This document shows positions 7,724 through 25,384 of a stretch of 32,000 bases of DNA, one piece after another. The first letter of the stretch is position 1; each line of letters starts with the position of its first letter. This DNA is from an uncultured Opitutales bacterium (GTDB lineage: Bacteria > Verrucomicrobiota > Verrucomicrobiia > Opitutales > Intestinicryptomonadaceae). The stretch lies in assembly GCA_934613415.1 (NCBI GenBank), contig CAKTSY010000005.1:60001-92000 (forward strand), given 5' to 3'. The position numbers and the translations under genes were made by a program. A model generated the notes under the pieces. It saw only the letters and a list, made by a program, of their open reading frames with translations, made no database searches and was not told the DNA's origin.

Positions 7724-9652
7724 TCAATACCAATATTCGCTTAAAAGATTTTTAAAAAAGCCTTTGTCTTTATAAAACTGCACCAAAACTTTTGCCTTAG
7801 TGTTTGGCTTTACTTTAACTGCAAAGCCGCAAAACGAATACCCTTTAAGCGGTAAATCTTTTTTGTTTGTAATTTTGTTTTCAAAAATTTCGGCACTATG
7901 CGGCAAATTGCTTTTAATTTTTGCAAAGACTTTTTCGTTGCCAAAACTTAGCTCTATTAGCGAGTTCGAAACTATTTTAACCTTTGCCTGAGTGGGTATG
8001 TTAAATACATATTCAACTTCGTCTGCCAAAGTTTCAAATTCGTCTAAAACTTCAACTTTTCTTTCGTTTTTAATATATACGCTTCTGGCGGCATTCTTTA
8101 ATTTTGCATTATACAATTCCGACAAGTCGAACTTTGCGCCGCTTTTTTCGGAGCTGTCGAATTTTTCCACCATTGTCCCAAAGCCGTCTACATTGGGCTG
8201 AACACCCTTTATGTAAAACGAGCTGTGCGAAGTATCTTTGTAGCACAAAAGAGACCATCTTTCGCTGTCTTGCGTCAAAAAGAAAAGCTTTTTTACCCCT
8301 CTGCTTTCCAACTCGGCATAGCCTACAATGTTCGGATCGCATACAAAGCGGTTGCTGTCGAAATCCAATACAAACGAGCCAACGTCCATATGCCCGTGCG
8401 AGTTCGACGCCTTTCCGCCTTTTGCCGCCAAGTAAATGCCCTTGCCTTTTTCCCAGTTGGTTCTGCCCATAAAAATGTGTTGTTTGCCTTTTGCAAAATA
8501 GTTTTTTTGCTTGGGCTGCATAAGGTTTTTGCAATCTATATTGGCAATGCTTTTCATAAGCATCGGCAAATTAAGGTTAAACTTGGGCTTAATCTTTCCG
8601 CTTTGAATATCGTTAAAATAGTCTTTGTATTGATATAAAAGCGTGTTGTCTTTTAGGCTGTCGGCAAACCAAAATTGCGGAAGCTGCGGGGCTTTCAACA
8701 CGCTGTCGTAGCAGTCGCCGTAATTAAAGGCAAGCATACTGCAGCCCGTCGAAAACTGCATAAATTTTGCCGAGGCAAAAATTTCGCCGTGTTTTTCCAT
8801 ACCCAAAAGCGAGCCATACGCCGTCTTTGCCGACTGCATTAGCAGAACTTCGTAGCCCGTGCCAAACTCCCAATAGCCTGCGGCTTCGGGATACGCTCCG
8901 TCGGGCTTGTACAAATCAAACGACTTTGCGTTCATATCCAAACAGCGCAAAATTATTTTTTTCGAAAGCTCGGGGTATTTGTCGAACAGCGCAAGACCGC
9001 CCATAAAAATGCCGGCATTGCAAACCTGATTCCAATTATTGTGAATGCTAAGCCATCTCCACCAATATTCGGGGTGTTTTTTGTCGTATGTAATTATAAG
9101 GGCTTTTTCGTAAATTGCCTTTTCTACAATAGCCAAAGTAGATTCGGGCAGGTCGTAGTAAAGCCAATCGTAGCCAATTGCAATGCCCGTTGTCATCGCC
9201 GAAACGTCCAAAAAATGTCCGGGGTTCCAAGTCTTAAAAGAGGCGGCCTTTAGCATATATTTTTCGGCTGCCTGCAAATATTTTTTGTCTTTTGTAATCC
9301 TGTAGGCATATGCAAGAGTGGGTATAGACCACCTGTATTCGTAGCAGGTTGCAAGCCTGTATACCACCATTTTGGCTGCGGGCGGCTCGACACTTGCAAG
9401 CTCGTTTGCCTTGTCTATAAGAGTGTTGTGGTATGCCTTTAACAATGCATTGCTTTTTAAGCCCTCTTTTATGACGGCTTCGTCTGCTATGGTCATAAGC
9501 AAGCGCGGGTGTTTTGCAATGTTGTCTAGCCAACCGCTTTCGGCAATTTTTTGCTCAGAAGCCGTGGCTATGGCGTATTTTTCGTCTACCGAATTTGCGG
9601 CGAACAACGCCGCTGCAAAAAGTGCAAAACCAATCGTAAAAATCTTTTTCAT
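7724..9652 (-). CDS. Secreted heparinase II/III-like polysaccharide lyase family protein
   Basis: The ORF is open to ATG 9679. The likely start is Met8 or Met10 (9658/9652), giving MKKIFTIGFALFAAALFAANS. The C-terminal half carries SNSHGHMDVGSFVLD, typical of the heparinase II/III domain. The N-terminal half is alpha-helical and resembles alginate-lyase/DUF4962. Confidence 0.7.
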   Translation of the reverse strand: MKKIFTIGFALFAAALFAANSVDEKYAIATASEQKIAESGWLDNIAKHPRLLMTIADEAVIKEGLKSNALLKAYHNTLIDKANELASVEPPAAKMVVYRLATCYEYRWSIPTLAYAYRITKDKKYLQAAEKYMLKAASFKTWNPGHFLDVSAMTTGIAIGYDWLYYDLPESTLAIVEKAIYEKALIITYDKKHPEYWWRWLSIHNNWNQVCNAGIFMGGLALFDKYPELSKKIILRCLDMNAKSFDLYKPDGAYPEAAGYWEFGTGYEVLLMQSAKTAYGSLLGMEKHGEIFASAKFMQFSTGCSMLAFNYGDCYDSVLKAPQLPQFWFADSLKDNTLLYQYKDYFNDIQSGKIKPKFNLNLPMLMKSIANIDCKNLMQPKQKNYFAKGKQHIFMGRTNWEKGKGIYLAAKGGKASNSHGHMDVGSFVLDFDSNRFVCDPNIVGYAELESRGVKKLFFLTQDSERWSLLCYKDTSHSSFYIKGVQPNVDGFGTMVEKFDSSEKSGAKFDLSELYNAKLKNAARSVYIKNERKVEVLDEFETLADEVEYVFNIPTQAKVKIVSNSLIELSFGNEKVFAKIKSNLPHSAEIFENKITNKKDLPLKGYSFCGFAVKVKPNTKAKVLVQFYKDKGFFKNLLSEYWY

Positions 9653-9721
9653 ATACATCTTTGATGAAATTTTTTGCATATTAAAATTATTGTCAAAACA
9701 ATATTAGAGACACACATTAAC

Positions 9722-9798: not shown

Positions 9799-11931
9799 TT
9801 AGTAGATAAACAACATTTCGCAATATTTGGGCAAAGGCCAAACTTCGCTGTCTACCAAAATTTCGGCGGTATCGGCATTCTTGCGCACTTTTGCCATAGA
9901 TTCAAGCAAAGCCGAATGTGCCGCCGAATTGTGCAACAATTCTTCAAGCTCGTCGGCCGATGCTATTGTTTCGTCTAGCAAAGTTGCCATTCGCAAAACA
10001 AAGGCTTCAAGCTTTGTCTTTTTTAGACCAAGCTCGCGCTGCGCTTTTAACGCCCCGTTTAAGTTTGCAACATACTCGCTTATTGCGGGTATTATGTGCG
10101 TTCTTGCAAGCTTAAGGGTTAGCCCCGCCTCAATTTCTATCTTTCTTTCGTATTCTTCCAAGAACACTTCGTATCTCGAAACAAGCTCTGCCCTGTTAAA
10201 CACCTTATATTTTTCGAACATTGCAATGTTCTTTTCGTCGGTATAGGGTTTTAGGGCTTCGGGCGTGGTTCTCAAATTTGGCAAGCCCCTCTTTTGGGCC
10301 TCTTTTACCCATTCGGCATTGTAGTTATTGCCGTTAAATATAATTCTTTTGTGCTTTTTAATTATATCGCTTAAAACGCCCTGCAATGTTTCGTGAAAAT
10401 TCTTGCCCTTTGCGTTTTCAAGCTTTGTTGCAATTTCGTCGAAAGCTTCGGCAACGGCGGTGTTCAATATAATGTTGGGGCCCGCGCAGCTTTGCGAAGA
10501 ACCCGCCGCCCTAAATTCGAACTTGTTGCCGGTAAAGGCAAATGGGCTTGTTCTGTTTCGGTCGGTTGCATCGCACGGCAAAGTGGGCAATGTGTCTACG
10601 CCGATTTTCAGCACGTTCGACTTTTTGCTTGTTTTTGCGTCGCCCTTTTCAAGCTGGCGCACAATGTCGGTAAGCTGTTCGCCCAAGAATATCGAAATTA
10701 TCGAAGGCGGTGCTTCGTTTGCGCCCAAGCGGTGGTCGTTGCCCGCGCCTGCGGTAGAAGCCCTAAGCAGGTCGCTATGCCTGTCTACAGCCTGAATTAC
10801 CGCGCAAAGCGTTGTAAGGAATATCGCATTTTGGTGAGGGTCGCTGCCTGGGTTTAAAAGGTTTACATCGCCAACCGAAATAGACCAGTTGTTGTGCTTG
10901 CCCGAACCGTTTACGCTTGCAAAGGGCTTTTCGTGAAGCAGGCACGCAAAACCGTGCTTGTCGGCAATCTGGCGCAGGGCGTCCATAACAAGCATATTGT
11001 GGTCTACGGCCAAATTAAGCTCTTCAAAAATGGGGGCAACTTCAAACTGCGCAGGGGCAACTTCGTTGTGTCGCGTTTTAGAGGGAATGCCCATTCGCCA
11101 CAGCTCTTTGTCTACATCGCTCATAAACGCCAAAATTCTGGGCTTAATTGTGCCGAAATAGTGGTCGTCTAGCTGCTGGTGTTTTTGCGGAGGCGCGCCA
11201 AAAAGCGTTCTGCCCGTTTGCATTAGGTCGGGGCGTTGAACGTAAAGGGCTTTGTCTATAAGGAAATATTCTTGTTCTGCGCCAAGAGTTACCGAAGGCT
11301 CGGCGTTTTCTATGCCGAAGCATTTCGCCAAACGCTTTGCCTGAAAGCCCAAAACCTGCATCGAACGCAAAAGCGGCGTTTTTTTGTCGAGAACTTCGCC
11401 CGTATACGAGCAAAAAGCGGTTGGTATGCACAAGGTAGCAACGTCGCCTCTGCGCTTAATAAAGGCGGGGCTGGTTGGGTCCCACGCAGTATAGCCGCGG
11501 GCTTCAAATGTGGACCTAAGCCCGCCCGATGGAAAACTCGATGCGTCGGGCTCGCCCATAATAAGGTTCTTACCCGAAAATCTTGTAATTACATTGCCAA
11601 GTTTGTCGAATTCCAAAAACGAGTCGTGCTTTTCGGCGGTAGAACCCGTAAGGGGCAAAAACCAGTGCGTATAGTGGGTTGCTCCCCTTTCTATAGCCCA
11701 CGATTTCATTGCATGGGCAACCGAGTCGGCAATGGACGAGTCCAAAGCCATCTTGTTGTTTATAGTTTCAAGCAGCTTTCTGTATACAGGACGCGGAAGG
11801 TATTCTTCCATGGCCTTTTTGCCGAAAACGTCGCAACCGAATTCCTCTACAATGCTATAGTTTTTCGAAACGCAATCCTTTTCGGGAAGCCTTTCGGCTA
11901 TTTTGGCAATCGCCTCATTTCTTATATTCAT
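9799..11931 (-). CDS. glnN: Glutamine synthetase type III
   Basis: 710 aa, the typical GSIII length. GS motifs are GAEQEYFLID, RHNEVAPAQFEVAP, NGSGKHNNWS and NRTSPFAFTGNKFEFRA. Confidence 0.9.
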   Translation of the reverse strand: MNIRNEAIAKIAERLPEKDCVSKNYSIVEEFGCDVFGKKAMEEYLPRPVYRKLLETINNKMALDSSIADSVAHAMKSWAIERGATHYTHWFLPLTGSTAEKHDSFLEFDKLGNVITRFSGKNLIMGEPDASSFPSGGLRSTFEARGYTAWDPTSPAFIKRRGDVATLCIPTAFCSYTGEVLDKKTPLLRSMQVLGFQAKRLAKCFGIENAEPSVTLGAEQEYFLIDKALYVQRPDLMQTGRTLFGAPPQKHQQLDDHYFGTIKPRILAFMSDVDKELWRMGIPSKTRHNEVAPAQFEVAPIFEELNLAVDHNMLVMDALRQIADKHGFACLLHEKPFASVNGSGKHNNWSISVGDVNLLNPGSDPHQNAIFLTTLCAVIQAVDRHSDLLRASTAGAGNDHRLGANEAPPSIISIFLGEQLTDIVRQLEKGDAKTSKKSNVLKIGVDTLPTLPCDATDRNRTSPFAFTGNKFEFRAAGSSQSCAGPNIILNTAVAEAFDEIATKLENAKGKNFHETLQGVLSDIIKKHKRIIFNGNNYNAEWVKEAQKRGLPNLRTTPEALKPYTDEKNIAMFEKYKVFNRAELVSRYEVFLEEYERKIEIEAGLTLKLARTHIIPAISEYVANLNGALKAQRELGLKKTKLEAFVLRMATLLDETIASADELEELLHNSAAHSALLESMAKVRKNADTAEILVDSEVWPLPKYCEMLFIY

Positions 11932-14319: not shown

Positions 14320-14874
14320 ATGAAACAGATAGTATGCCCCGTTTGCGGCTATGTTATGGACCCAAACAACGTTCCCGATTTTTGCCCCCAGTGCAAAGCA
14401 CCCAAGGCAAAGTTTATAGAAAGGGAAGTTTCCGACGAAAAGCCCGCCTGGGCCGACGAACACCGCATTGGCGTTGCCAAAGATGTAGACCCCGAAGTTT
14501 TGGAAGGCCTTAGGGCGAACTTTACGGGCGAATGCACAGAAGTTGGAATGTATTTGGCAATGAGCCGCCAAGCCGACAGAGAAGGCTACCCCGAAGTTGC
14601 CGAAGCCTACAAGCGCATTGCTTTTGAAGAAGCAGAACACGCCGCAAAGTTTGCCGAATTGTTGGGCGAAGTTGTAGTGCCCTGCACAAAGACGAACCTT
14701 ATTGCAAGGGTAGAAGCCGAAAGAGGCGCAACCGAAGGCAAATTGGCAATTGCAAAGCGCGCAAAACAGCTCGGCTACGATGCAATTCACGACACCGTTC
14801 ACGAAATGTGCAAAGACGAAGCACGCCACGGCTGCGCGTTCTCGGGCCTGCTAAAACGCTACTTTAACAAATAG
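14320..14874 (+). CDS. rbr: Reverse rubrerythrin (N-terminal rubredoxin-like domain plus C-terminal di-iron four-helix bundle)
   Basis: 184 aa. CPVCGY...CPQCK lies at the N-terminus. Di-iron ligand motifs [24 protein letters not shown] and KDEARH follow. Confidence 0.85.
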
Positions 14875-14893
14875 CATTTGCGCATAGCAAAAA

Positions 14894-14936
14894 CAAAAAA
14901 GCTTCCAAGCATACTTTGTTTGGAAGCTTTTTTTGC
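14894..14936. terminator. Bidirectional intrinsic terminator between rbr and the minus-strand operon
   Basis: A-run, then AAGCTTCCAA - loop - TTGGAAGCTT (perfect 10 bp), then TTTTTT. Confidence 0.8.
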
Positions 14937-14951
14937 GTTATAAAAAATCGC

Positions 14952-16787
14952 CTACAAGCTTAGCACAAAAATTTCCAAGTCGCGCAATTCGCTGTCGCTA
15001 AGTTGCGAAGTTTCGCCGTGGGCGTTGTCTTTGTTTTGCTTTAGCATATCGAATATGGTTGGAGCTTTGCCGTTGTATAAATAGGGAGCCGTTCTCCAAA
15101 CTTCGCGCAATGTTGGCGTGTCGAACTTTGCATTTTCGTAAAGGCCTGTTCCGGTTTTTACATTGTGCATTTTCATATCGGTATAATATTCGCCCGTATG
15201 ACACATATTGCACTTTGCCATTTCAAAATAGGCGGCTCCGTTTTCTATGCGCTGTAAATATTTTTCGTCGTACAAATAGGGGCTTGGAATTTCCCTTAAA
15301 GACGACAAATATTTATCTATGCAAACGGCGTCTTTTTCCGGACGCGAGGCAAACTGTATGTATCTTATGCCCTTTCTAACCGCAATAAAAGCGTCTTTGC
15401 GTATGCCCGTTATCATGGAAGGCGGCGTAAAATGCGAATATAGCATAGATTTAGACTGCTTCGGGTTGCCTATGCCGTCGTTAAGCAAGTCCCAATTAAG
15501 GCCGTCGGAGCGCACCTGAGTGTGGCACGTTACGCACGAAAGCCAGTTTTGGAAACACAGCGAAGCATCGTGAAAATACAAATCGCCACGGCGCACATCG
15601 TTCATTTTCTCGTTGCCGCCAATCGAAATTTTTTCGACTTTCATTTCGGGAATGGAAACTTTGTTTAGAGTGTCCGAATAATACATTGCCACAATAAGGT
15701 TTCCCTTTTCGTCGAAATCCATATGGCGCGGGCCAAAGCCTTTTAGGGTAATACGCTTTTTTAAGCCGTCGGCAAACGACAAATCGTTTTGCGGGGCAAT
15801 TTTGCCTTTAGGATTTTTCGCGTACGCCGCATATTTTTTTAAAATGCCTGCAATATCAACCGCCGCCAATTCGTGATTGCCCGCCGAAAGTGCATACAAG
15901 GTTTTGCCGTCTGGCGAAACCTTAAGCGCATATGGGTTTGCAAAACCCTTGTCGGCGTCGTCCAACAAAAATGCAAACATAAATTCCTTTTTTTGGGCGT
16001 CTATAACCGAAACCGCGTTTGTGCCAACCCACCCTTTTTCTACCTGCGTTGTAGGCACATTAAAGCGGCCTATAACGTGCGAGCAAAAAAGATATTTGCC
16101 GTCGGGCGAAGCGCAAACATACTTGCCGTTTATAGAGCCTGCAGGCAAGGATATGTTTTTTATATTCTGCATTTTTGGGGCATCTATAACCGAAAGGCTA
16201 AGTGCAATGTTTGCCTCTTTCGAAGCGTCTTTTGCCATTGGTATTTGGTTTAGCACAAAAATCGTATCGTTTAAAACGAGCATCGAAAAGGGGTCTCGTA
16301 CCGCCATTGCATTGCCTTCGGCCTTTAGGGTTTTCAGGTTAAACTTCAATATCTCGTTTGTAAATTGCCGCGACACATACAAAAATTTTGCGTCTGGCGA
16401 AATTGCTATGGCTTTGGGCATATGCCCCACAAAAAATTCGCGCTCTACTTTGGCGGTTTGCACGTCTACAACCGCGCATTTGCCCAAAGGAGCGTTTATT
16501 AAAACATACAGTTTTTTAGAATCGGGCGAAAACACACAGTCGCCAGTATAGCCCGAAAGTTTTACTTTGCCCGCAATTTTGCCGTCTTTAAAAAACATTA
16601 TGCCCTTGCCCGTTCTGCAAGTTATGCAAAGCGTACCGTTGGGGGCCTTTGCAACATAGTCGGGGCTAAGGTAAAATTCGCCGTAGTCGGGAATATCGCC
16701 ATAAATATCGGTCGCCCCGCCCTGCTGGTCGGCGAACAGTAAAAGCGAACTAAAACAAAAAAACGCGGCAAACAAAAACTTTTTCAT
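14952..16787 (-). CDS. Secreted beta-propeller (YVTN/YncE-like repeats) fused to a di-haem cytochrome c peroxidase / MauG-family domain
   Basis: 611 aa with signal peptide MKKFLFAAFFCFSSLLLFA. Repeated ..SPDGK.LY.. propeller-blade motifs fill the N-terminal ~400 aa. Two CxxCH sites (CVTCH and CNMCH) lie 108 aa apart. The CCP-like FDTPTLREVWRTAPYLYNG follows. A strong SD, AGGGGGA, sits 6 nt upstream of the ATG. Confidence 0.7.
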   Translation of the reverse strand: MKKFLFAAFFCFSSLLLFADQQGGATDIYGDIPDYGEFYLSPDYVAKAPNGTLCITCRTGKGIMFFKDGKIAGKVKLSGYTGDCVFSPDSKKLYVLINAPLGKCAVVDVQTAKVEREFFVGHMPKAIAISPDAKFLYVSRQFTNEILKFNLKTLKAEGNAMAVRDPFSMLVLNDTIFVLNQIPMAKDASKEANIALSLSVIDAPKMQNIKNISLPAGSINGKYVCASPDGKYLFCSHVIGRFNVPTTQVEKGWVGTNAVSVIDAQKKEFMFAFLLDDADKGFANPYALKVSPDGKTLYALSAGNHELAAVDIAGILKKYAAYAKNPKGKIAPQNDLSFADGLKKRITLKGFGPRHMDFDEKGNLIVAMYYSDTLNKVSIPEMKVEKISIGGNEKMNDVRRGDLYFHDASLCFQNWLSCVTCHTQVRSDGLNWDLLNDGIGNPKQSKSMLYSHFTPPSMITGIRKDAFIAVRKGIRYIQFASRPEKDAVCIDKYLSSLREIPSPYLYDEKYLQRIENGAAYFEMAKCNMCHTGEYYTDMKMHNVKTGTGLYENAKFDTPTLREVWRTAPYLYNGKAPTIFDMLKQNKDNAHGETSQLSDSELRDLEIFVLSL

Positions 16788-16809
16788 AATTTATCCCCCT
16801 TTTGTTTTG

Positions 16810-19737
16810 TCAGAAAATAAAGGCCCCCTTAAACAAAGTTTGGTAGTTGTTTTTCGCTTTGGGCGCAATTACTGTTCCAACACTTCCGAAAACCTTTATT
16901 GGCAATATACTACCATTTTCCAACCTAACTGCAACTGCATTTTTAGGCAAATTAAACAAAACCTTTTCGTTCGGCTTTGCAAAGAAATAAAACTTAACCT
17001 CTTTGCCGCAATTTTCTATTATGTAGTTAGAAGGCGTTTCGGCTTTTATATTGCCGATTTTAACAAGGTTAAAGGCGCATTCTACGTTTTTACCCTTTGC
17101 AAAAAAGCCGTTGTTTGCAACCGTGTTGCCGTCTGTTTTAAGCGTTGCGTTGCCAATTGCTGCCGCAATTTTTATATCGCCATACTGCGAAAATATTGTG
17201 GCGGAATCGTCGCCGTCCAAATCGGCGTTTGCCCATTTGTGCTCAAAGTTTTGCATTGGCTTGCCCACTAGTTTAGACAAAAGCGAAATTTGAATTTGCG
17301 CCGTCCAACGCCGCCATTGCACCATTTGCGGGATTTTTGCAAATTTGGCGTTTAAGTGGTTTATCATAGAAAATCCGTAGGCAACGGTATACGCAAGCTT
17401 TACGGGGTTTTCTACGTCCATTCCCAAATTATGATGAGTAAGCACCACTTTGTCGTGAAAAAACGCACCTGCCATATTGCCCAAATTAAAACCGTCTTTG
17501 GGGAATGCGTCCCACGCGTTTTTATACCACGCCCCCGAATGCATAAACGAAAACGAAAATCCGCAAAATTGGATTTCGCTGTCGCAAAGTGCCCACCAAC
17601 CGTCTTCGGTAGACAAATATGCCTTTTTAGAATCCTCTATTACGGTAGACAATATTCCGTCGGGATACGCGCTGGGGCTAGGGGCGGCCTTGTTATAGTC
17701 GTACTTAAACGACCTTGAGCCGCACTGATCCTGAAAAACCATATCGCTATTATAGTCTTGGGCTGCAAGCTTTATCATATTTTTGTTGGCGTCTCTTACG
17801 TTTTTATGCCACATACAGGTTGTCCACCCCTTTGCGTGCCCGTAGCTTTCAAAATATTTTTTGCCGTTTGCATCTAGTGCCAATGCAGCTTCGCCTTTGG
17901 CGGCAAAAGTTGGCCCACGCGGGAAATCGCACCACCAAGTTGTATTTGTATACGGCATATATAAATGCCCTTTGGCTTTGCAAAAGTCGATAAACGCCAA
18001 ATATTCTTCGTTTGTGCCATACGACGCCCTTGGCGGATATAAATCGGGATACAACCCGTCTAACCCCGCCCTAAGGTGTGCGGTAGTGTGTATTAGCGCG
18101 GGGTAGTCCATAATAGACACCGTATTTGTTGCCGCCTTTACGTTGGAATCGCTAATTTTTGTAAAAGTGGCTTTCTTTAACTTTTCAAGAAACGCCTTTG
18201 GCAATTTTTGCTCTAGAGTTTTTAAAACATTGTTGTCGGCGCAAAAACTTTTTGCGCTTTCTATTTCGCTTTTTCCGAAAAGTATTTTCACCGATGGGGC
18301 TTTAAAGCTTTCGCCCTTGTTTACATAGGCTAAAAAACACCTGTCTACATAGCCGCCCATTTCGCCGCCGCCAAAGGAAAATTCCGAAGGCGTAAACATT
18401 TTTGCCTTGTCGCTTAAGCCTTCGAATGGCTGCCAAGTTATGGGCTGTGCCGAATATAACGCAATGGGAACATTCTTTATATTAAAATGTATAAAATCTG
18501 CTATGCTAGAGGGAACTCGCGCTTGAACCGAATAGTATTTTTTTGGAACCATTTGGCGCGAAAAGCTTTCGCCGCCCGTTTCAAACCAATAGCCGCCGTT
18601 TTCGGCAAAGTCTCTTATAGGCTCTGCAAGTTCCGCAATAGAAGCGTTCGGCATAGGCATGCAAAAATCCTGCAACGGGTTTATAATTGCCGCCACATTG
18701 TCGGCACTAAGGGCATTAAGCAATTCCTGCGGAGTTCTTATAATGCAAACATTGCCGTTTTTGCCGAAACTTTCGGCATATTCCAACGGGGCTGGGATTG
18801 GATTTTGGTTTGTGTTGGGGGCTATAACGCAAATTTTGTTGCGGTTGTTTTTCGCCGCAAGTTCCGCCGCATGCAAAGCCATTGCTTTTACATATTTTAC
18901 TTGCGATTCTCCGTTTAAAAAGTAGCCGCCTATTCTGAAAACCGCACCCAAGCCAAACTTTTTGCCGCCTATAAACACGCCGTTTTTGGAGTTTGCAATT
19001 ACAATGTCGGAGGAATTTTTGCCGAATGTTCTTGCCGGAATTTTCTCGGTTTTTACAAGCTCTTTGCAAAGCTTTTCGCCAAGCCATTCAGTGGCGTCTT
19101 CGCCCAAGGTTATGGGGCTTGGCTTTTTCTCGCAAAAGCGCATGGGGCTTTCAAAAATTTGCCTATATATTTTTTGCCCGAAACTTTTGCCTTTAATCCA
19201 AAACAAATTTTTTGAATCGGGCGATTTTGGCATAAAAAAGTTTTTGTTAAACACAAAACCGGAATTGCGCGGGTAATTTGTCTGCGCCGAAAGCGACACC
19301 AAATTTTCGGGCTTAAACGTAAATTGCGACGGAATGGAAAACCCCACCAAGTCCGCCTTTTTGGGTGTGTATTTGCTTTCAATTTCAATAAAGTCGCCGC
19401 CGTCTTTTACGAAGACTAAAACATCTATTTCTTCGCTTTGGTAGCTTAAGCTTAGCCTTTCGTCTTCTATTTCGCCAAAAAATTTGGCGTTTTTAGAAAC
19501 CGCTTGGCTTTTGTCGGCAAACTTTGCCGTCCACAAATTGCCGCTAAAATCAAGAGCTAGGTCTTTGCCCAAAGCTTCTATTTTTGTTATAGACCCGTTG
19601 GCTTTGCTAAATTCTACAACATAATTTTTGCCCGAAACTAAAAACGCCTTTTCGCTTTCGGATATTTTTGCAAAAACAACTTGGCAAAGCAAAAAAAATG
19701 GGAACAAGAAAAACGCTACAAATTTCATTTTACGCAT
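16810..19737 (-). CDS. Large secreted protein of unknown family, paralog A (975 aa)
   Basis: ATG at 19737, signal peptide MRKMKFVAFFLFPFFLLCQVVFA|K. A long uninterrupted ORF with a paralog immediately upstream. The central segment KICVI..AAIINP..ENGGYWFETGG looks flavodoxin/GATase1-like. The C-terminal half (MPYTNTTWW, VFQDQCGSRSF, LSTEDGWW) looks like the strand ends of a TIM-barrel glycosidase. No family name was recognised. Confidence 0.85.
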   Translation of the reverse strand: MRKMKFVAFFLFPFFLLCQVVFAKISESEKAFLVSGKNYVVEFSKANGSITKIEALGKDLALDFSGNLWTAKFADKSQAVSKNAKFFGEIEDERLSLSYQSEEIDVLVFVKDGGDFIEIESKYTPKKADLVGFSIPSQFTFKPENLVSLSAQTNYPRNSGFVFNKNFFMPKSPDSKNLFWIKGKSFGQKIYRQIFESPMRFCEKKPSPITLGEDATEWLGEKLCKELVKTEKIPARTFGKNSSDIVIANSKNGVFIGGKKFGLGAVFRIGGYFLNGESQVKYVKAMALHAAELAAKNNRNKICVIAPNTNQNPIPAPLEYAESFGKNGNVCIIRTPQELLNALSADNVAAIINPLQDFCMPMPNASIAELAEPIRDFAENGGYWFETGGESFSRQMVPKKYYSVQARVPSSIADFIHFNIKNVPIALYSAQPITWQPFEGLSDKAKMFTPSEFSFGGGEMGGYVDRCFLAYVNKGESFKAPSVKILFGKSEIESAKSFCADNNVLKTLEQKLPKAFLEKLKKATFTKISDSNVKAATNTVSIMDYPALIHTTAHLRAGLDGLYPDLYPPRASYGTNEEYLAFIDFCKAKGHLYMPYTNTTWWCDFPRGPTFAAKGEAALALDANGKKYFESYGHAKGWTTCMWHKNVRDANKNMIKLAAQDYNSDMVFQDQCGSRSFKYDYNKAAPSPSAYPDGILSTVIEDSKKAYLSTEDGWWALCDSEIQFCGFSFSFMHSGAWYKNAWDAFPKDGFNLGNMAGAFFHDKVVLTHHNLGMDVENPVKLAYTVAYGFSMINHLNAKFAKIPQMVQWRRWTAQIQISLLSKLVGKPMQNFEHKWANADLDGDDSATIFSQYGDIKIAAAIGNATLKTDGNTVANNGFFAKGKNVECAFNLVKIGNIKAETPSNYIIENCGKEVKFYFFAKPNEKVLFNLPKNAVAVRLENGSILPIKVFGSVGTVIAPKAKNNYQTLFKGAFIF

Positions 19738-19743
19738 TATATT

Positions 19744-22677
19744 TTAAAAGATAAAGCTGCCCTTAAATAGCGTATGGCAATTTGCGTCGGACTCGGGCGC
19801 GGTTATAACGCCCGCATTGCCGAAGCTTTCTATAGGCAACTCTCTGCCATCTTGCAATTTTACGGCAACGGCCTTTTTTGGCACGGCAAATAAAACCTTT
19901 TCGTTCGGCTTTGCAAAGAAATAAAACTTAAGCTCTTTGCCGCAATTTTCTATTATGTAGCTGGAAGGTTTTTCGGCATTTACATTGCCGAGTTTAACAA
20001 GGTTAAATGCGCATTCAACGTTTTTGCCCTTTGCAAAAAAGCCGTCGTTTGCAATTGTGTAATTGCCTATTTTTAGCGTTGTGTCGCCAATGGCTGCCGC
20101 AGTTTTTATATCGCCATATTGCGAGAATATTGTGGCAGAATCGTCGCCGTCTAAATCTGGATTTGTCCATTTATGCGCAAAGCCATGCATCGGCTTGCCT
20201 ATTAGTTTCGACAAAAGAGACATTTGAAGCTGCGCTGTCCAACGCCTCCACTCAATTAAATGGGCAAAGTTTATCTGCCTAATATATAACTGGTTTACCA
20301 TAGAATAGCCGTAGGCAATAGTATATGCAAGCTTGCGCGGAGTGTTTACATCGGTTCCCAAATCGTGGTGGGTAAGCGAAACTTTGTCGTGAAAAAACGC
20401 CCCCGTTAGGTTGCCCAATGTAAAGCTGTCTTTGGGGAAAGTGTCCCAAATGCACTTATACCATTTGCCCTGCTGCATAAACGAAAACGACATTCCGCAA
20501 AACTGAATTTCGCCGTCGCAAATGCCCCACCAACCGTCTTCGGTAGACAAATACGCCTTTTTGGAATCGCGCATTACGGTAGAGACAAAGCCCTCGGAAT
20601 ATGCACTTGGGCTTGGAGACGCCTTGTTGTAGTCGTACCTAAAAGCCCTTGCCCCGCTTTGGTCTTGGAACACTATGTCGCTTTTATAGTCTACCAAAGA
20701 TTCTTTAAGAAGTTTGTCGTTGGCGTCTCTTACGTCTTTATGCCACATACAGGTTGTCCAGCCTTCGGCGCTTCCGTATTTTTCAAAAATTTCCTTTCCG
20801 TTTTCGTCTAGCGAAAGCGCGCCGCGCCCCTTTGCCTCGAAGGTTGGTCCTTTGGGAGAGTCGCACCACCAGGTGTTGTTGGTATAAGGCATATACATAT
20901 GCCCTTTAGATTTGCAAAAGTCGATAAACGCCAAATATTCTTCGTTTGTTCCGTACGACGCCCTTGGCGGATAGTGGTCGGGATACTGTTTGTCGAAGCC
21001 GCCCCTTAGATAACCCGAAACGTGAACTACCATCGGAAAATCTAAGGCCGCCACAGTCTGCATAGCGTCTTTTGCGTTAGAATCGTTTATTTTCATCATA
21101 ACCGATTTTTTGAACTTTTCCAAAAACGCCTTGGGCATTTTTTGGTCTAGGGTTTTTAGAACCTTGTTGTCGGCGCAAAAACTTTTTGCGCTTTCTATTT
21201 CGCTTTTGCCGAAAAGTATTTTTACAGATGGGGCTTTAAAAGTTTCGCCCTTGTTTACATAGGCTAAAAAACACCTGTCTACATAGCCGCCCTTTTCGCC
21301 GCCGCCAAAGGAAAATTCCGAAGGCGTAAACATCTTTGCCTTGTCGCTTAAGCCTTCAAACGGCTGCCAAGTTATGGGCTGCACCGAATATAGCGCAAGG
21401 TTTTTGCCTAGCATATTAAAATGCAAAAAATCGGCTATAGCCGAAGGAACGCGGTTTTTAACCGAAAAGTATTTTTTCGGCTCCATTTGGCGCATAAAAC
21501 TAAAACCGCCAGTTTCAAACCAATAGCCGCCGTTTTCGGCAAACTCTCTTATGGGTTCAACCAAGTCCATAAGCGTGCCGTCGGGCATCGGCAAACAGCA
21601 TTCCTGCAGGGGGTTTATTATTGCGGCAACATCGTCGGCTTCCAAAGCCTGCTGCAGCTGGTTTGCATTTCTTATAACGCAAAAGTTTTTTACGTTGTCG
21701 AAAGCCGCAACATATTCCGAAGGGCGCGGGGTTTCCCACTGGTTTGTATTGCAATCTATAACGCAAATTTTGTTGCGCTTTGTTTTCGACAAAAGCTTTG
21801 CCGAATGCAACGCCATTGCCTTTATATATTTTACCTGCGATTCGTCTTTTAAAAACCAGCCGCCTATTCTGAAAATTGCGCCTTCGCCTATCTTTTTGCC
21901 GCCTATAAACACGCCGTTTTTAGAATTGGCAATTACAATGTCGGCAGAGTTTTTGCCGAATGTTCTTGTGGGGATTTTATCGGTTTTTACAAGCTCTTTA
22001 GAAAGCTTTTCGCCAAGCCATTCTGAAGCGTCTTTGCCCAATGTTATGGGGCTTGGCTCCCTATAAGGCTCGTAGCAACTCATTGCAGTGCCAAATATTT
22101 TTTTGTAAACGCCCATTCCGTAGTTTTTGCCGCGCACCCAAAATATATTTTTGCTCGACATACTTTTGGGCATAAAAAAGTTCTTGTTAAACACAACTCC
22201 CGAATTGCGCGGGTAGTTAAACTCTGCCGAAAGCGATACCAAATTTTGCGGCTTAAACGTAAATTGCGACGGAATGGAAAACTCCAGCAAGTCTGCCTTT
22301 TTCGGCGTATATTTGCTTTCAATTTCAATAAAATCGCCGCCGTATTTTACGAAAACTAAAACATCTATTTCTTCGCTTTGGTAGCTTAAGCTTAGCCTTT
22401 CGTCTTCTATTTTGCCAAAAAATTTGGCGTTTTTAGAAACCGTTTGGCTTTTGTCGGCAAACTTTGCCGCCCACAAATTGCCGCCAAAATCAAGAGCTAG
22501 GTCTTTGCCCAAAGCTTCTATTTTTGTTATAGACCCGTTGGCTTTGCTAAATTCTACAACATAGTTTTTGCCCGAAACTAAAAATGTTTTTTCAGTTTCG
22601 GATATTTTTGCAAAAACAACTTGGCAAAGCGCAAACGCCAAAGCCAATACCGCAAGTCTAATAAATCTCATTTTCAT
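19744..22677 (-). CDS. Large secreted protein of unknown family, paralog B (~977 aa)
   Basis: The track start at 22683 is TTG. The ATG at 22677 gives MKMRFIRLAVLALAFALCQVVFA|K. It is collinear with paralog A over its full length. The stop at 19744-19746 lies 6 nt before the ATG of paralog A. Confidence 0.85.
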   Translation of the reverse strand: MKMRFIRLAVLALAFALCQVVFAKISETEKTFLVSGKNYVVEFSKANGSITKIEALGKDLALDFGGNLWAAKFADKSQTVSKNAKFFGKIEDERLSLSYQSEEIDVLVFVKYGGDFIEIESKYTPKKADLLEFSIPSQFTFKPQNLVSLSAEFNYPRNSGVVFNKNFFMPKSMSSKNIFWVRGKNYGMGVYKKIFGTAMSCYEPYREPSPITLGKDASEWLGEKLSKELVKTDKIPTRTFGKNSADIVIANSKNGVFIGGKKIGEGAIFRIGGWFLKDESQVKYIKAMALHSAKLLSKTKRNKICVIDCNTNQWETPRPSEYVAAFDNVKNFCVIRNANQLQQALEADDVAAIINPLQECCLPMPDGTLMDLVEPIREFAENGGYWFETGGFSFMRQMEPKKYFSVKNRVPSAIADFLHFNMLGKNLALYSVQPITWQPFEGLSDKAKMFTPSEFSFGGGEKGGYVDRCFLAYVNKGETFKAPSVKILFGKSEIESAKSFCADNKVLKTLDQKMPKAFLEKFKKSVMMKINDSNAKDAMQTVAALDFPMVVHVSGYLRGGFDKQYPDHYPPRASYGTNEEYLAFIDFCKSKGHMYMPYTNNTWWCDSPKGPTFEAKGRGALSLDENGKEIFEKYGSAEGWTTCMWHKDVRDANDKLLKESLVDYKSDIVFQDQSGARAFRYDYNKASPSPSAYSEGFVSTVMRDSKKAYLSTEDGWWGICDGEIQFCGMSFSFMQQGKWYKCIWDTFPKDSFTLGNLTGAFFHDKVSLTHHDLGTDVNTPRKLAYTIAYGYSMVNQLYIRQINFAHLIEWRRWTAQLQMSLLSKLIGKPMHGFAHKWTNPDLDGDDSATIFSQYGDIKTAAAIGDTTLKIGNYTIANDGFFAKGKNVECAFNLVKLGNVNAEKPSSYIIENCGKELKFYFFAKPNEKVLFAVPKKAVAVKLQDGRELPIESFGNAGVITAPESDANCHTLFKGSFIF

Positions 22678-22690
22678 TCGCAAAAAAACT

Positions 22691-22718
22691 ACTATAACGC
22701 AAATTTCTTTGCAAACAA
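22691..22718 (-). promoter_or_regulatory. Candidate sigma70-type promoter for the paralog B / paralog A / CCP-like operon
   Basis: The minus strand reads TTGTTT (22718-22713) - 16 nt - TATAGT (22696-22691), 13 nt upstream of ATG 22677. No terminator is seen between dprA and this site. Confidence 0.3.
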
Positions 22719-22760
22719 AAAGATGCCTTAAGCGCGCGCAAAATGCACAGAATAAAAAGC

Positions 22761-23897
22761 CTACATACGCTCGTATTTGTCGCCGATGGTGCGCTTTAAA
22801 AACTTTTTAATTTCAAGCATAGAAAGGCACACCGCAATTTTTGCGGGCGGCATTTCGCATTTAAGCGAAATTTCATTTGCCGAAAGTTTTGCCCCGTCTT
22901 TAAAAAATTCAAAAACAAATTTTTCGTCGCTGCCAAGCGAGTCTAAATTTAGTTGTGAAATTTTCGGCGTCGGCAAATTCAACTCGCCTTGTACTGCGCA
23001 ACCATTTTTTGGCATAGCTGCCCTGCCGCAAAACCTAAGTTGCTCTATAACGTCTCGGGCACTTGTTGCAAGCAAAGCCCCGTCTTTTATAAGCGCGTGG
23101 CAACCCGCCGAGCTTTCGCTGTCTATGCGGCCTGGAACCGCAAAAACGTCTTTGCCCTGCTCGGCGGCTATCGAGGCGGTAATCATACTGCCTCCCTTTA
23201 GCCCCGATTCTATAACAACAACCGCAAGCGACAAACCCGCAACTATTCTGTTTCGCATTGGGAAAGACGCCCTGTCGGCTCTTTGCCCCAATTTAAATTC
23301 CGAAACCACCGCGCCTTTTTGCGAAATGTCTTCGTATAATTTTGAATTTTCTGGCGGATACACAACATCTACGCCGTTGCCCAAAACAGCAATCGTTTTG
23401 CCGTTTGCCTCCAAAGCTCCCATATGGGCATACGAATCTATTCCGCGCGCCATTCCGCTAACAACGCAAAAGCCGGCTTCTGCAAAATCTCTTGCAAAAG
23501 CCCTTGCGCACATTTGCCCGTAAACCGAGCAAAAGCGCGTACCTACAATGGCAATACACGGCATATTCAATATATCTGCATTGCCCCTAACATATAGACC
23601 AACTGGCATTGAATCGAAAGAGCGCAAACTTTGCGGATATTTTTCGTTTTCAACGCCAACATATTCGATTTTTAATTTTGCCATTCTTTCCAGATAGGTT
23701 TTGCCTATAAGATTTGCGCTTGCCAAAATGCTATCGGCACACTTTTGGCGCATTCTTTCGACCTGCATAAGCTCGCTTTTAGAAGCCGAAAAAATATTCT
23801 CTACCGAACCGAATTTTTCCAGCAGCCTTGCCGCCATTTTCGCGCCCACTTCGGGCACTGCCGCCAACCGCATATATTGAAAATCGCTATCGTTCAT
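22761..23897 (-). CDS. dprA: DNA processing protein DprA
   Basis: 378 aa. The Rossmann-like DprA core includes IAIVGTRFCS, VSGMARGIDSYAHMGAL and VFAVPGRID. A C-terminal wHTH-like tail is present. Its start overlaps the nnr stop as ATGA (23894-23897). Confidence 0.9.
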   Translation of the reverse strand: MNDSDFQYMRLAAVPEVGAKMAARLLEKFGSVENIFSASKSELMQVERMRQKCADSILASANLIGKTYLERMAKLKIEYVGVENEKYPQSLRSFDSMPVGLYVRGNADILNMPCIAIVGTRFCSVYGQMCARAFARDFAEAGFCVVSGMARGIDSYAHMGALEANGKTIAVLGNGVDVVYPPENSKLYEDISQKGAVVSEFKLGQRADRASFPMRNRIVAGLSLAVVVIESGLKGGSMITASIAAEQGKDVFAVPGRIDSESSAGCHALIKDGALLATSARDVIEQLRFCGRAAMPKNGCAVQGELNLPTPKISQLNLDSLGSDEKFVFEFFKDGAKLSANEISLKCEMPPAKIAVCLSMLEIKKFLKRTIGDKYERM

Positions 23898-25384
23898 CTT
23901 TTAATATATTGCAGAATTTCGGAGGCTATTATTGCGTTTTCGCCGCATTTTTTTGCGGCCTTGTTTGCCGCCTTGCCCAAAATGGAATATGCTGCCAAAG
24001 CAGCCTCGGGCAGCGAAAGGTTAAATTCTTTATTTGCAAGCAAAGACGCCGCAATGCCCGCTAGCATATCGCCCGTAGAACCTCTTGCCAGAGCGGGAGT
24101 GCCCTCGGTGTTAACGACAATGTTTTTGCCGTCGCAAACCCTAACAAAACGCCCCTTAAGCATAACGGTTGCGTTATACTGTTTTGCTACCTGCATTAGG
24201 CTTTGGTCGGAACTGTCTTTTGCCAGACGCAAAAATTCGCCGTTGTGCGGGCAAATTAAAACGTGTCTGTTTGCGTCTTTGCAGGCCTGCAAACATTCGG
24301 GGCAAATTGCGTCGGCGTCTAAAACAATTGGGCAGTTAAAGTTCTTTATCAGTTCAATAAAAAGAGCCCTTGTTTCAAAAGTTCTGCCAGCTCCCGAACC
24401 CAGCAAAAGCGCGGTAGATTTTCCCGCATATTTTGCAATGTCTTTTAAGCCCTCCAACGCCAAAAAGCCGTTCTCGCAAACGGGGCAAGGCGTCCACATA
24501 GCCGAGGGCTCGTTAACGGCAAAGGCAATATCCAAGCCTTCCGACACGCACACGCGCAAAAGCCCTATTCCGCTTTTTAGCGCGCCCTTTGCGTTAAGCA
24601 AAACGGCACCCTTATATTCGCGCGAGCCGCCTACTATAGTTAAAAATCCGTAGCTGCGCTTGTCGGTGTCGCTGCGCCTTAACTTTTTAAAGAAGTGCAA
24701 GCTTTGCTTTGCGTTGTAGATATATTGGCTAGCCTTCTCTTTTTCGCCGTCAAAAAAGCCTATGTCTACATATCTTATGCGCCCTACATATTTCGCGTTA
24801 AAATCGCAAAAAAGCGGCTTTTTTGCAATGCCTGTTGCGTATGTATAGTCGGCAACAAAGGCGGTACTTGCTGGCTTTTCGCCTATGCCGAAAGGCAGGT
24901 CTACCGCAATTTTATAGTCGCTTTGCAGACTGTTTGCGGCGTTTACATATCCGCAAAATTCGGGAGAAATCGCGCCGCTAAAGCGCATGGCTGCAATGCC
25001 CTCTACTACAATGCTGTAGCCGAACTTTGCCATTTGCTGCAAATTTTTAAAGTCCGCCCCAAAGGCGTTTTTAAGCTCGCCTAACAACACGCGCAAATTT
25101 GCCCCAAGTTTCGATTCGTCAAAAAGCAAAGCTATGTCGATTTTGCATTTTGGGAATTTTTTGCAGGCACTTAATGCAAACGCCACGGCGTCAGCGGCGT
25201 TGTTGCCCTTGCCCAGCAAAAGCGCAATGCGCTTGGGTTTGCAGGCTGTTTGTTTAAAAAAATCCTTCGCAATTTTTTTGCCGACTTTCCTTATAACCGA
25301 AAGCGAATCGGCAGCGGTATTTTCAAAATACCGCTTTTCAAACTCGGCAGACGCTTGCAAATCCATTATAGGGTCTATCTTCAT
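23894..25384 (-). CDS. nnr: Bifunctional NAD(P)H-hydrate repair enzyme (epimerase plus ADP-dependent dehydratase)
   Basis: 496 aa. The YjeF-N motif is LLGKGNNAADAVAFA. The carbohydrate-kinase-like C-terminal domain carries LLGSGAG, PHNGEF, VMLKG and GSTGDMLAGIAASLLA. Confidence 0.85.
   Translation of the reverse strand: MKIDPIMDLQASAEFEKRYFENTAADSLSVIRKVGKKIAKDFFKQTACKPKRIALLLGKGNNAADAVAFALSACKKFPKCKIDIALLFDESKLGANLRVLLGELKNAFGADFKNLQQMAKFGYSIVVEGIAAMRFSGAISPEFCGYVNAANSLQSDYKIAVDLPFGIGEKPASTAFVADYTYATGIAKKPLFCDFNAKYVGRIRYVDIGFFDGEKEKASQYIYNAKQSLHFFKKLRRSDTDKRSYGFLTIVGGSREYKGAVLLNAKGALKSGIGLLRVCVSEGLDIAFAVNEPSAMWTPCPVCENGFLALEGLKDIAKYAGKSTALLLGSGAGRTFETRALFIELIKNFNCPIVLDADAICPECLQACKDANRHVLICPHNGEFLRLAKDSSDQSLMQVAKQYNATVMLKGRFVRVCDGKNIVVNTEGTPALARGSTGDMLAGIAASLLANKEFNLSLPEAALAAYSILGKAANKAAKKCGENAIIASEILQYIKR

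Follow-up and report, generated by a model that had tools for sequence, protein, structure and literature searches.

Tandem genes of the DUF6259 family in an uncultured Opitutales bacterium probably encode exported glycoside hydrolases distantly related in structure to GH129 and GH101

Background

What is the function of two adjacent, similar genes of an uncultured Opitutales bacterium, each of which encodes a secreted protein of about 975 amino acids? The genes are located in a contig of a GenBank assembly (GCA_934613415.1, CAKTSY010000005.1), and the stretch analysed in this study, referred to as the window, comprises 32,000 nucleotides of that contig (positions 60,001 to 92,000); all coordinates below are positions in the window unless a locus of a relative is named. 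A previous reading of this DNA, made from the letters alone and referred to here as the sequence-only reading, proposed that the pair belongs to no recognisable family and represents a new type of carbohydrate-active enzyme. Profile searches, structure prediction and the genomic context of relatives were used to examine the pair, and these analyses suggested, with a probability of roughly 0.7, that both genes encode exported glycoside hydrolases (GH) of the DUF6259 family, distant structural relatives of the GH129 and GH101 retaining alpha-glycosidases. The proteins are probably an uncharacterised new branch of a familiar enzyme type and not a new type.

The tandem pair and its family

Both open reading frames (ORFs) were found on the minus strand, 6 nt apart, at the coordinates that the sequence-only reading had quoted:

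19744..22683, minus strand: upstream paralog; ORF of 979 aa from the TTG at 22683 or 977 aa from the ATG at 22677; Pfam DUF6259 member
16810..19737, minus strand: downstream paralog; ORF of 975 aa with an ATG start; copy used for modelling
19738..19743, minus strand: spacer AATATA, 6 nt, separating the stop codon of the upstream gene from the downstream ATG
22609-22683, minus strand: signal peptide of the upstream copy, equivalent of aa 1-23 of the downstream copy
19669..19737, minus strand: signal peptide of the downstream copy, aa 1-23, MRKMKFVAFFLFPFFLLCQVVFA with K following the cleavage site; from the sequence, with a helix at aa 3-20 of pLDDT (predicted local distance difference test) ~55

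An identical database protein of the upstream copy (P0001) is 977 aa long, which is consistent with a start at the ATG at 22677, two codons past the TTG. The paralogs shared 74% identity and 84% positives across 960 aa with 2 gap positions (BLASTP), in agreement with the earlier by-eye estimate of about three-quarters identity and full collinearity, and all of the motifs quoted in that reading were present in the sequences. The tandem pair as observed is real, and a chance effect is excluded.

N-termini ending in LCQVVFA/K (the slash marks the predicted cleavage site) were seen in both copies, as previously described, and correspond to the low-confidence helix in the model of the downstream copy. 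These signal peptides, together with the domains of the predicted structure described below, bear out the description of the proteins as secreted and multidomain. A Cys residue is located 6 residues ahead of the predicted signal peptidase (SPase) I site in both paralogs (LLC-QVVFA/K), and the homologue of Coraliomargarita sp. CAG:312 (L006, about 10010-10100) has a lipobox-like LLSC-AFA/E sequence; judged from these residues, the paralogs may be processed as lipoproteins by SPase II as an alternative to SPase I.

The Pfam scan assigned the upstream paralog to DUF6259 (PF19773) with 39.6 bits (E = 4.4e-10, residues 510-687), above the gathering threshold of 28.7 bits for the whole-protein score. 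Relatives also exceeded this threshold, namely the orthologue P0002 (40.0 bits), P0005 (45.3 bits) and P0012. The downstream paralog had no DUF6259 match above threshold in the Pfam scan, and its orthologue P0004 scored just under it (27.4 bits); the downstream paralog was assigned to DUF6259 because it is 74% identical to the upstream copy. Weak Pfam matches were also obtained, to DUF5696 (PF18952) for the paralogs and to DUF5869 for the upstream one. Nothing matched either paralog in the NCBIfam scan. In the Pfam scan, neither the GH101 model (PF12905) nor any GH129-named model appeared among their matches, weak ones up to E = 5 included. Single-sequence phmmer searches against PDB (Protein Data Bank) sequences found no related chain; one gave no match and another gave a chance-level aminotransferase match (E = 0.68) and nothing else.

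Word-indexed homologue searches, with a single sequence or with a 6-sequence profile, retrieved just 5 close relatives. An exhaustive phmmer search over 1.84 billion cluster representatives retrieved 472 clusters (50% identity) at E <= 1e-3, including 174 at E <= 1e-30, and many of the 472 were collinear with the paralogs across about 950-1000 residues. The statement that the pair has no recognisable family therefore does not hold, because an above-threshold Pfam family and 472 related clusters were found. The relatives are mostly from Verrucomicrobiota, Planctomycetota and Armatimonadota, with some from Bacteroidota, and genome matches were obtained in Opitutales, Verrucomicrobiales, Planctomycetota (Thermoguttaceae and others), Armatimonadota and one member of Rikenellaceae. 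The nearest genome loci are from human-gut metagenome-assembled genomes (MAGs) labelled Opitutales (Verrucomicrobiota); one isolate was 93-95% identical. The pair was also found in a Hadza MAG, where the upstream copy is 88% and the downstream copy 71% identical, and the CAG:312 homologue mentioned above was 44% identical.

Predicted structure and fold matches

A family alignment of 55 sequences, with column identity averaging ~28%, served as the input for AlphaFold2 modelling, for the profile search and for the conservation analysis. The model of the downstream paralog had a pLDDT of 94.2 and a predicted template modelling score (pTM) of 0.91, and its domain limits were assigned by DSSP:

18928..19665, minus strand: N-terminal beta-sandwich, aa 25-270; DSSP; invariant G160, R236 and G264; corresponds to the GH129 N-terminal beta-sandwich
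18277..18924, minus strand: inserted module, aa 272-487; DSSP and conservation; no GH129 counterpart
17278..18270, minus strand: (beta/alpha)8 barrel, predicted catalytic domain, aa 490-820; strand/helix alternation and Foldseek; the DUF6259 match covers its first half
16813..17256, minus strand: C-terminal beta-sandwich region, aa 828-975, ending in TLFKGAFIF; DSSP

The domain order guessed in the sequence-only reading (a beta-rich region, an alpha/beta module, a barrel and a C-terminal beta-sandwich) agreed with the DSSP assignment of this model.

Foldseek comparison of the model with the PDB ranked ZgGH129 first (5opq, 8rzk; E = 2e-20, template modelling (TM) score on the target 0.65). The Flavonifractor plautii alpha-galactosaminidase FpGalNase (9ayu; E = 3e-18, TM on target 0.61) and the GH129 enzyme NagBb (5wzn, 5wzp; E = 5e-18, TM on target 0.72) were matched next, followed by the GH101 enzymes EngBF and SpGH101 (E = 1e-15 to 1e-14, TM on target 0.3-0.37) and by GH36 and GH31 enzymes (E = 3e-14 and weaker, TM on target 0.4-0.5). 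The TM score on the query was never above 0.47, and therefore no close relative has been solved among the PDB structures available up to April 2026.

Predicted active site

Searching PDB sequences with the 55-sequence profile matched NagBb (E = 5.7e-4) over 60 residues that include the motif HLxxYxxGGFDxxYPDxLP. In this alignment H550..D560..P564-D565..P568 of the downstream copy correspond to H320..D330..P334-D335..P338 of NagBb, and the weak DUF5696 matches of the paralogs fall on the same motif. Fragments similar to the 61-aa NagBb stretch carry the Pfam labels PF18952 (DUF5696) and PF12905 (GH101), which ties the weak DUF5696 matches of the paralogs to the same superfamily. The motif and the two predicted catalytic residues are located as follows:

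18034..18090, minus strand: active-site loop motif of the downstream copy, aa 550-568, HTTAHLRAGLDGLYPDLYP; aligned to NagBb in the profile search against PDB sequences
20968-21024, minus strand: active-site loop of the upstream copy, HVSGYLRGGFDKQYPDHYP; family consensus kept at the five positions discussed below
17728..17730, minus strand: codon of D670 (VFQ-D-Q), predicted nucleophile; invariant in the 55 sequences; C-terminal end of strand beta4 (667-670)
20662-20664, minus strand: D674 of the upstream copy, counterpart of D670
17605..17607, minus strand: codon of E711 (LST-E-DGW), predicted general acid/base; invariant; C-terminal end of strand beta5 (708-711)
20539-20541, minus strand: E715 of the upstream copy, counterpart of E711

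Among the residues invariant in the 55 sequences, both paralogs included, were D560, Y596, N598, D670, R675, D680 and E711, and the motifs PYTN, FQDQxGxR, TE (with E711) and GGxW were invariant or nearly so. The proposal of a (beta/alpha)8 barrel with conserved acidic residues was borne out by the model, in which the invariant D670 and E711 are placed on barrel strand ends.

An Asp ending strand beta4 with a Glu ending strand beta5 is the arrangement of GH13, GH101 and GH129 enzymes, and D670 and E711 are the predicted nucleophile and acid/base, respectively. They are 41 residues apart, versus 32 in SpGH101 (D764/E796, named in the PDB match). The acid/base of NagBb is presumably Glu478, which would place it 43 residues after D435. 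In ZgGH129 the corresponding D486 and E517 are 31 residues apart, and Asp435 of NagBb is known as a catalytic residue through the ZgGH129 paper (PMC5698469). A review describes the GH101 barrel as GH13-like and NagBb and the enzymes of GH101 as alike in their catalytic domains. The designation as a new enzyme type is not supported by these results, since both the fold and the predicted catalytic geometry are within the range of the GH129/GH101/GH36/GH31 retaining alpha-glycosidases and the family profile matched NagBb. Judged by the refuting conditions set in the sequence-only reading, the outcome was mixed: at the sequence level no characterised family claimed the proteins, but their fold group is a known one.

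The inserted module

The inserted module is the main feature that sets the family apart from its known relatives. By DSSP its first part (about 280-390) is alpha/beta and Rossmann-like and its second part (about 394-487) consists of beta-hairpins, and the module modelled alone (pLDDT 82) likewise had a beta-alpha-beta Rossmann-like half and then hairpins. Two motifs, N353-P354-x-x-[E/D]357 (E357 in 90%) and G381-G-x-W384-F-E-T-G-G389 (G381 and W384 invariant), are conserved as strongly as the catalytic residues, and so are F392, P409 and D414; together these positions span about 18496-18681 of the window. Foldseek comparison of the isolated module with the PDB gave no match at E <= 1e-3; the best was at E = 2e-3 with TM of 0.3 or lower, and the weak top matches were Rossmann-like domains of S-adenosylmethionine-dependent methyltransferases, periplasmic-binding proteins and pyridoxal-phosphate enzymes. 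The module had been described as flavodoxin/GATase1-like: its alpha/beta fold was confirmed by DSSP, but neither named fold was among the top 50 Foldseek matches, and this identity was rejected.

Comparison with known glycoside hydrolases

GH129 enzymes gave the best Foldseek matches. NagBb (5WZN), the alpha-N-acetylgalactosaminidase of Bifidobacterium bifidum, and ZgGH129/DagB (5OPQ, 8RZK), a 'GH129-like' 3,6-anhydro-D-galactosidase, have in common with the window proteins a domain order in which the (beta/alpha)8 barrel stands between an N-terminal beta-sandwich and a C-terminal beta domain, the H..D..PD..P motif after barrel strand 2, and an Asp after a hydrophobic strand with a Glu 31-43 residues on. 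In ZgGH129 these domains span residues 35-299 (N-terminal beta-sandwich), 300-620 (TIM barrel) and 621-693 (immunoglobulin-like domain) (PMC5698469). As modelled, the window proteins have the GH129 architecture plus the extra module. They differ from GH129 in being ~320 residues longer, with the ~210-residue inserted module and a C-terminal region roughly twice as large, and in a structural-alignment identity of only 8-10%; at the sequence level, the relation to GH129 consisted of the 60-residue motif-level profile match, with no GH129-named Pfam model matched. ZgGH129, which is 16% identical to NagBb, was deemed too divergent for GH129 by its authors (PMC5698469).

The GH101 enzymes EngBF (2ZXQ) and SpGH101 (5A55) resemble the window proteins in the GH13-like barrel, in the flanking beta-sandwiches and in an Asp nucleophile with a Glu acid/base as predicted for the window proteins (Foldseek E = 1e-15), but they are 1100-1900 aa long with other accessory domains, and their TM on the query was about 0.38-0.41. 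PF12905 matched neither paralog, and the similarity to GH101 is at the fold level only.

Enzymes of the clan GH-D type (GH36, GH31 and FpGalNase, 9AYU, which we take to be a GH36 enzyme) share with the window proteins the overall layout of three domains and the predicted chemistry of a retaining alpha-glycosidase (Foldseek E = 1e-18 to 1e-12). Clan GH-D enzymes have the Asp nucleophile on beta4 and an Asp acid/base on beta6, whereas here the second invariant acid at a strand end is a Glu (E711), and its strand immediately follows that of the predicted nucleophile. By the DSSP strand numbering the proteins therefore do not fall within clan GH-D (GH27/GH31/GH36), and GH36 and GH31 ranked below GH129 and GH101. 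The Pfam models themselves, DUF6259 (300 positions) and DUF5696 (612 positions), are domain models without the ~975-aa architecture and have no function attached.

Genomic context of relatives

The Rikenellaceae homologue (L020) is located within a polysaccharide utilisation locus (PUL) in the order aldose epimerase, GH43, homologue, GH43, followed by SusD and SusC. In two separate lineages the homologue adjoins a gene for a GH106 alpha-L-rhamnosidase, and one of these loci (L026) also contains a LacI regulator, a glycyl-radical enzyme with its activase, and GFO/IDH/MocA oxidoreductases. Neighbours in other relatives included GH5 with a GH63/78-like gene; GH2 with a carbohydrate-binding module (CBM) of family 9 and Laminin_G_3 under LacI; GH71 with a trehalase-like gene under a GntR-type regulator with a periplasmic-binding-protein domain; GH28 and GH78 within 10 kb; and a carbohydrate esterase (CE) of family 15. 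In long relatives the module is fused to SGNH esterase, BACON, fn3 and laminin-G domains. This context supports a catabolic carbohydrate-active role, and the mix of GH106, GH78, GH28, GH43 and GH2 resembles sets for the degradation of pectin or arabinogalactan. The carbohydrate-active role assumed in the sequence-only reading was thus backed both by the fold matches and by the genomic context of relatives.

Two further observations were made on these loci. The glycyl-radical enzyme and its radical-SAM activase (L026, 1501-4541) are encoded in the LacI-headed locus with the homologue and GH106, which may be a locus for the metabolism of a deoxy-sugar (rhamnose or fucose) to propanediol. A recurrent cassette was found in L026, L031, L033 and L035, apparently from PVC (Planctomycetes-Verrucomicrobia-Chlamydiae) bacteria; it comprises a LacI/GntR-type regulator with a periplasmic-binding-protein domain, a prepilin-type N_methyl/SBP_bac_10 protein, a protein of about 300-930 aa (unannotated or Laminin_G_3), and the DUF6259 homologue, which is often trailed by Laminin_G_3 or CBM9 proteins.

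Divergence of the two paralogs

Comparison with the Hadza MAG, in which the tandem pair is conserved along with its synteny, indicated that different segments of the paralogs have had different histories. Between aa 24 and 135, the paralogs are 92-94% identical within a genome, versus 67-68% for orthologues between genomes, and between aa 421 and 495 the corresponding values are 89-93% and 81-87%. The segments at aa 271-345 and 496-560 had the reverse pattern, with 52-60% between paralogs and 77-95% between orthologues. Third-codon-position identity in 50-aa windows was 0.84-1.0 for windows starting at aa 24-99 and 0.88-0.92 for those starting at 422 and 447, against ~0.45 elsewhere. Because paralogs within a genome are closer than orthologues in some tracts and the reverse is true in others, it was concluded that gene conversion homogenises some tracts while others are kept paralog-specific. 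The homogenised tracts are:

19333..19668, minus strand: gene-conversion tract, aa 24-135 of the downstream copy; partner 22273-22608 in the upstream copy
18253..18477, minus strand: second homogenised tract, aa 421-495 of the downstream copy; partner 21187-21411 in the upstream copy

Five residues of the downstream copy differ from the family consensus (Y554H, G557A, F559L, K561G and H566L), all in the NagBb-aligned loop, and the upstream copy retained the consensus at all five. The same remodelled loop is carried by P0004, and every family-invariant residue is kept in both copies. Judged from the sequences, the pair would fit two active enzymes with different preferences at the -1/+1 subsites. 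The description of a substrate-diversified pair is therefore favoured insofar as divergence is concentrated in the active-site loop, from which a difference in specificity may be predicted.

An orthologue with 33% identity (P0016; L030, 10001-12913) is a single copy in the synteny seen in the window, trkA-trkH-pdxJ-acpS-yjeF-dprA; therefore, the tandem duplication arose within this Opitutales lineage. In related Opitutales MAGs (CAKUIA01, L004/L008; JAXFOH01, L005/L007) contigs end or start inside the paralog pair, probably as a result of assembly breakage at the near-identical gene-conversion tracts, and for this reason MAG catalogues may list the pair too rarely or in truncated form.

Proposed function and alternative explanations

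In the proposed mechanism, the signal peptide would be removed on export, and the barrel would act on a complex glycan by double displacement, releasing a sugar held in axial (alpha-D-type) linkage. A glycosyl-enzyme intermediate would arise from attack of D670 (beta4) on the anomeric carbon, with E711 (beta5) first giving a proton to the leaving group and afterwards activating water. The loop H550..D560..P564-D565 is predicted to shape the -1 subsite like its NagBb counterpart, and the N- and C-terminal beta-sandwiches would be the usual accessory domains of this enzyme group. After a lineage-specific tandem duplication, patches of the two copies would have been kept alike by gene conversion, with the active-site loop and other segments staying different, and on account of these differences the pair probably handles two related but distinct linkages. 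With low confidence, the substrate is suggested to be a plant glycan of the pectic or arabinogalactan type, in which an alpha-D-galacto-configured residue would be the target.

Several results weigh against the assignment as exported alpha-glycosidases. The top fold matches, which are retaining alpha-glycosidases, had only 7-10% identity to the model and low TM scores on the query. No family member has been characterised: names in the source databases are limited to 'hypothetical' or 'uncharacterized', and a literature search on DUF6259, DUF5696, PF19773 and PF18952 found no mention of them. The neighbours of relatives are heterogeneous, with no single substrate emerging. In this organism and in the single-copy orthologue with 33% identity, the gene follows dprA among housekeeping genes, outside any glycan locus, and an Armatimonadota relative (L011) is located head-to-head with a glycosyltransferase (GT) cluster of the exopolysaccharide (EPS) type (FkbM methyltransferase, GT2, GT4 and AsnB).

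The last two of these findings would be expected if the proteins were hydrolases for trimming or remodelling an exopolysaccharide or envelope glycan of the cell itself, like PelA, PslG, Sph3 and Ega3 of biofilm polysaccharide systems, and did not scavenge nutrients; the Opitutales synteny (trkAH-pdxJ-acpS-yjeF-dprA-gene) is stable down to 33% identity and has no transporter or regulator nearby. Such a role is unlikely, as most of the sampled relatives are beside catabolic GH, CE or CBM genes and LacI/GntR-type regulators, or in a SusC/D PUL, and the top fold matches are catabolic exo- or endo-alpha-glycosidases and not EPS hydrolases of the GH114, GH135 or GH166 type. It is very unlikely that the proteins are not hydrolases at all, that is, that they serve as a carbohydrate-binding protein or scaffold or catalyse transglycosylation or an elimination of the alpha-glucan-lyase type, as some GH31 enzymes do, or that the downstream copy is a pseudoenzyme. 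The large conserved extra module, and the sub-threshold DUF6259 score and five loop substitutions of the downstream copy, are compatible with these possibilities. Both copies, however, keep all invariant residues, including D560, D670, R675, D680 and E711, conservation is concentrated at the barrel strand ends, as for a catalytic site, and the conservation of the remodelled loop in P0004 points to selection and against decay.

The remaining alternatives concern the rank of the family. It is quite unlikely that the proteins simply belong, as divergent sequences, to a family that CAZy already has (GH129, GH101 or one created recently), with nothing new at the family level. The proteins have their fold and active-site motif in common with GH129 and GH101, and CAZy regularly adds families. 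On the other side are the missing PF12905, GH129-named Pfam and NCBIfam matches, the single-sequence PDB searches without a related chain, the low TM on the query, and the view of its own authors that ZgGH129 is too divergent for GH129 (PMC5698469), since the window proteins are further still from that family. A literature search on new families related to GH129/GH101 found nothing relevant, and judged by Pfam, NCBIfam, PDB sequences, source names and the literature, the family is a candidate new GH family. A bolder version is possible but doubtful: the ~975-aa DUF6259 proteins would be a new GH family with an undescribed alpha-glycosidase specificity, for example for a rhamnose-containing pectic or arabinogalactan linkage, in which the active site would include the inserted module (NPxxE, GGxWFExGG) as an integral part, or the module would form a second functional site, and the paralogs, with N-terminal domains homogenised by gene conversion, might form a heterodimer, an idea that is based on the contribution of active-site residues by the dimer partners of ZgGH129.

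If exported glycoside hydrolases are indeed encoded, DUF6259 would be a candidate new GH family of at least 472 clusters in gut and environmental Verrucomicrobiota, Planctomycetota, Armatimonadota and some Bacteroidota, phyla with large, poorly annotated glycan-degrading repertoires, and a gene conserved in uncultured human-gut Opitutales would gain an enzyme function. The analysis provides D670 and E711 as a catalytic hypothesis, along with a map of the domains and a naturally diverged paralog pair suited to specificity studies. As both the fold and the probable mechanism are well understood already, the gain is incremental and not conceptual.

Neighbouring genes and minor observations

The genes of the window are mostly housekeeping genes, including dprA, yjeF, acpS, pdxJ, trkAH, glnA-III and a rubrerythrin gene. 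Upstream of the pair are dprA, yjeF, acpS, pdxJ and trkH/A; downstream of it are a gene for a 611-aa beta-propeller/di-haem cytochrome c-like protein and genes for rubrerythrin, aldose epimerase and glutamine synthetase III. The earlier description of the surrounding genome as rich in polysaccharide-active proteins was an overstatement for this window, where the glycan-related genes are limited to the aldose epimerase and two weak CAZyme-like matches. No SusC/SusD pair or transporter was found near the pair in the window, so that a PUL of the Bacteroidota type was not recognised here. Promoter and terminator scans of 14700-24000 gave counts that did not differ from those in shuffled sequence.

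The 611-aa protein (14952-16787, minus strand), encoded 22 nt downstream of the pair, is secreted and has a lactonase/SGL-type beta-propeller together with RoxA-like/di-haem cytochrome c peroxidase-like motifs. A conserved functional link of the pair to this gene was considered and rejected, as it is a companion in close Opitutales relatives only. An SGL-type propeller gene also follows the Armatimonadota homologue, possibly by coincidence.

The two weak CAZyme-like matches were a 651-aa protein (7724-9679, minus strand), which is DUF4962/heparinase II/III-like under the Pfam cut-offs, and a 709-aa protein (1602-3731, minus strand), which is GH42-like with 21.4 bits versus a cut-off of 21. From their sequences, these two proteins may be further poorly classified glycan-active enzymes.

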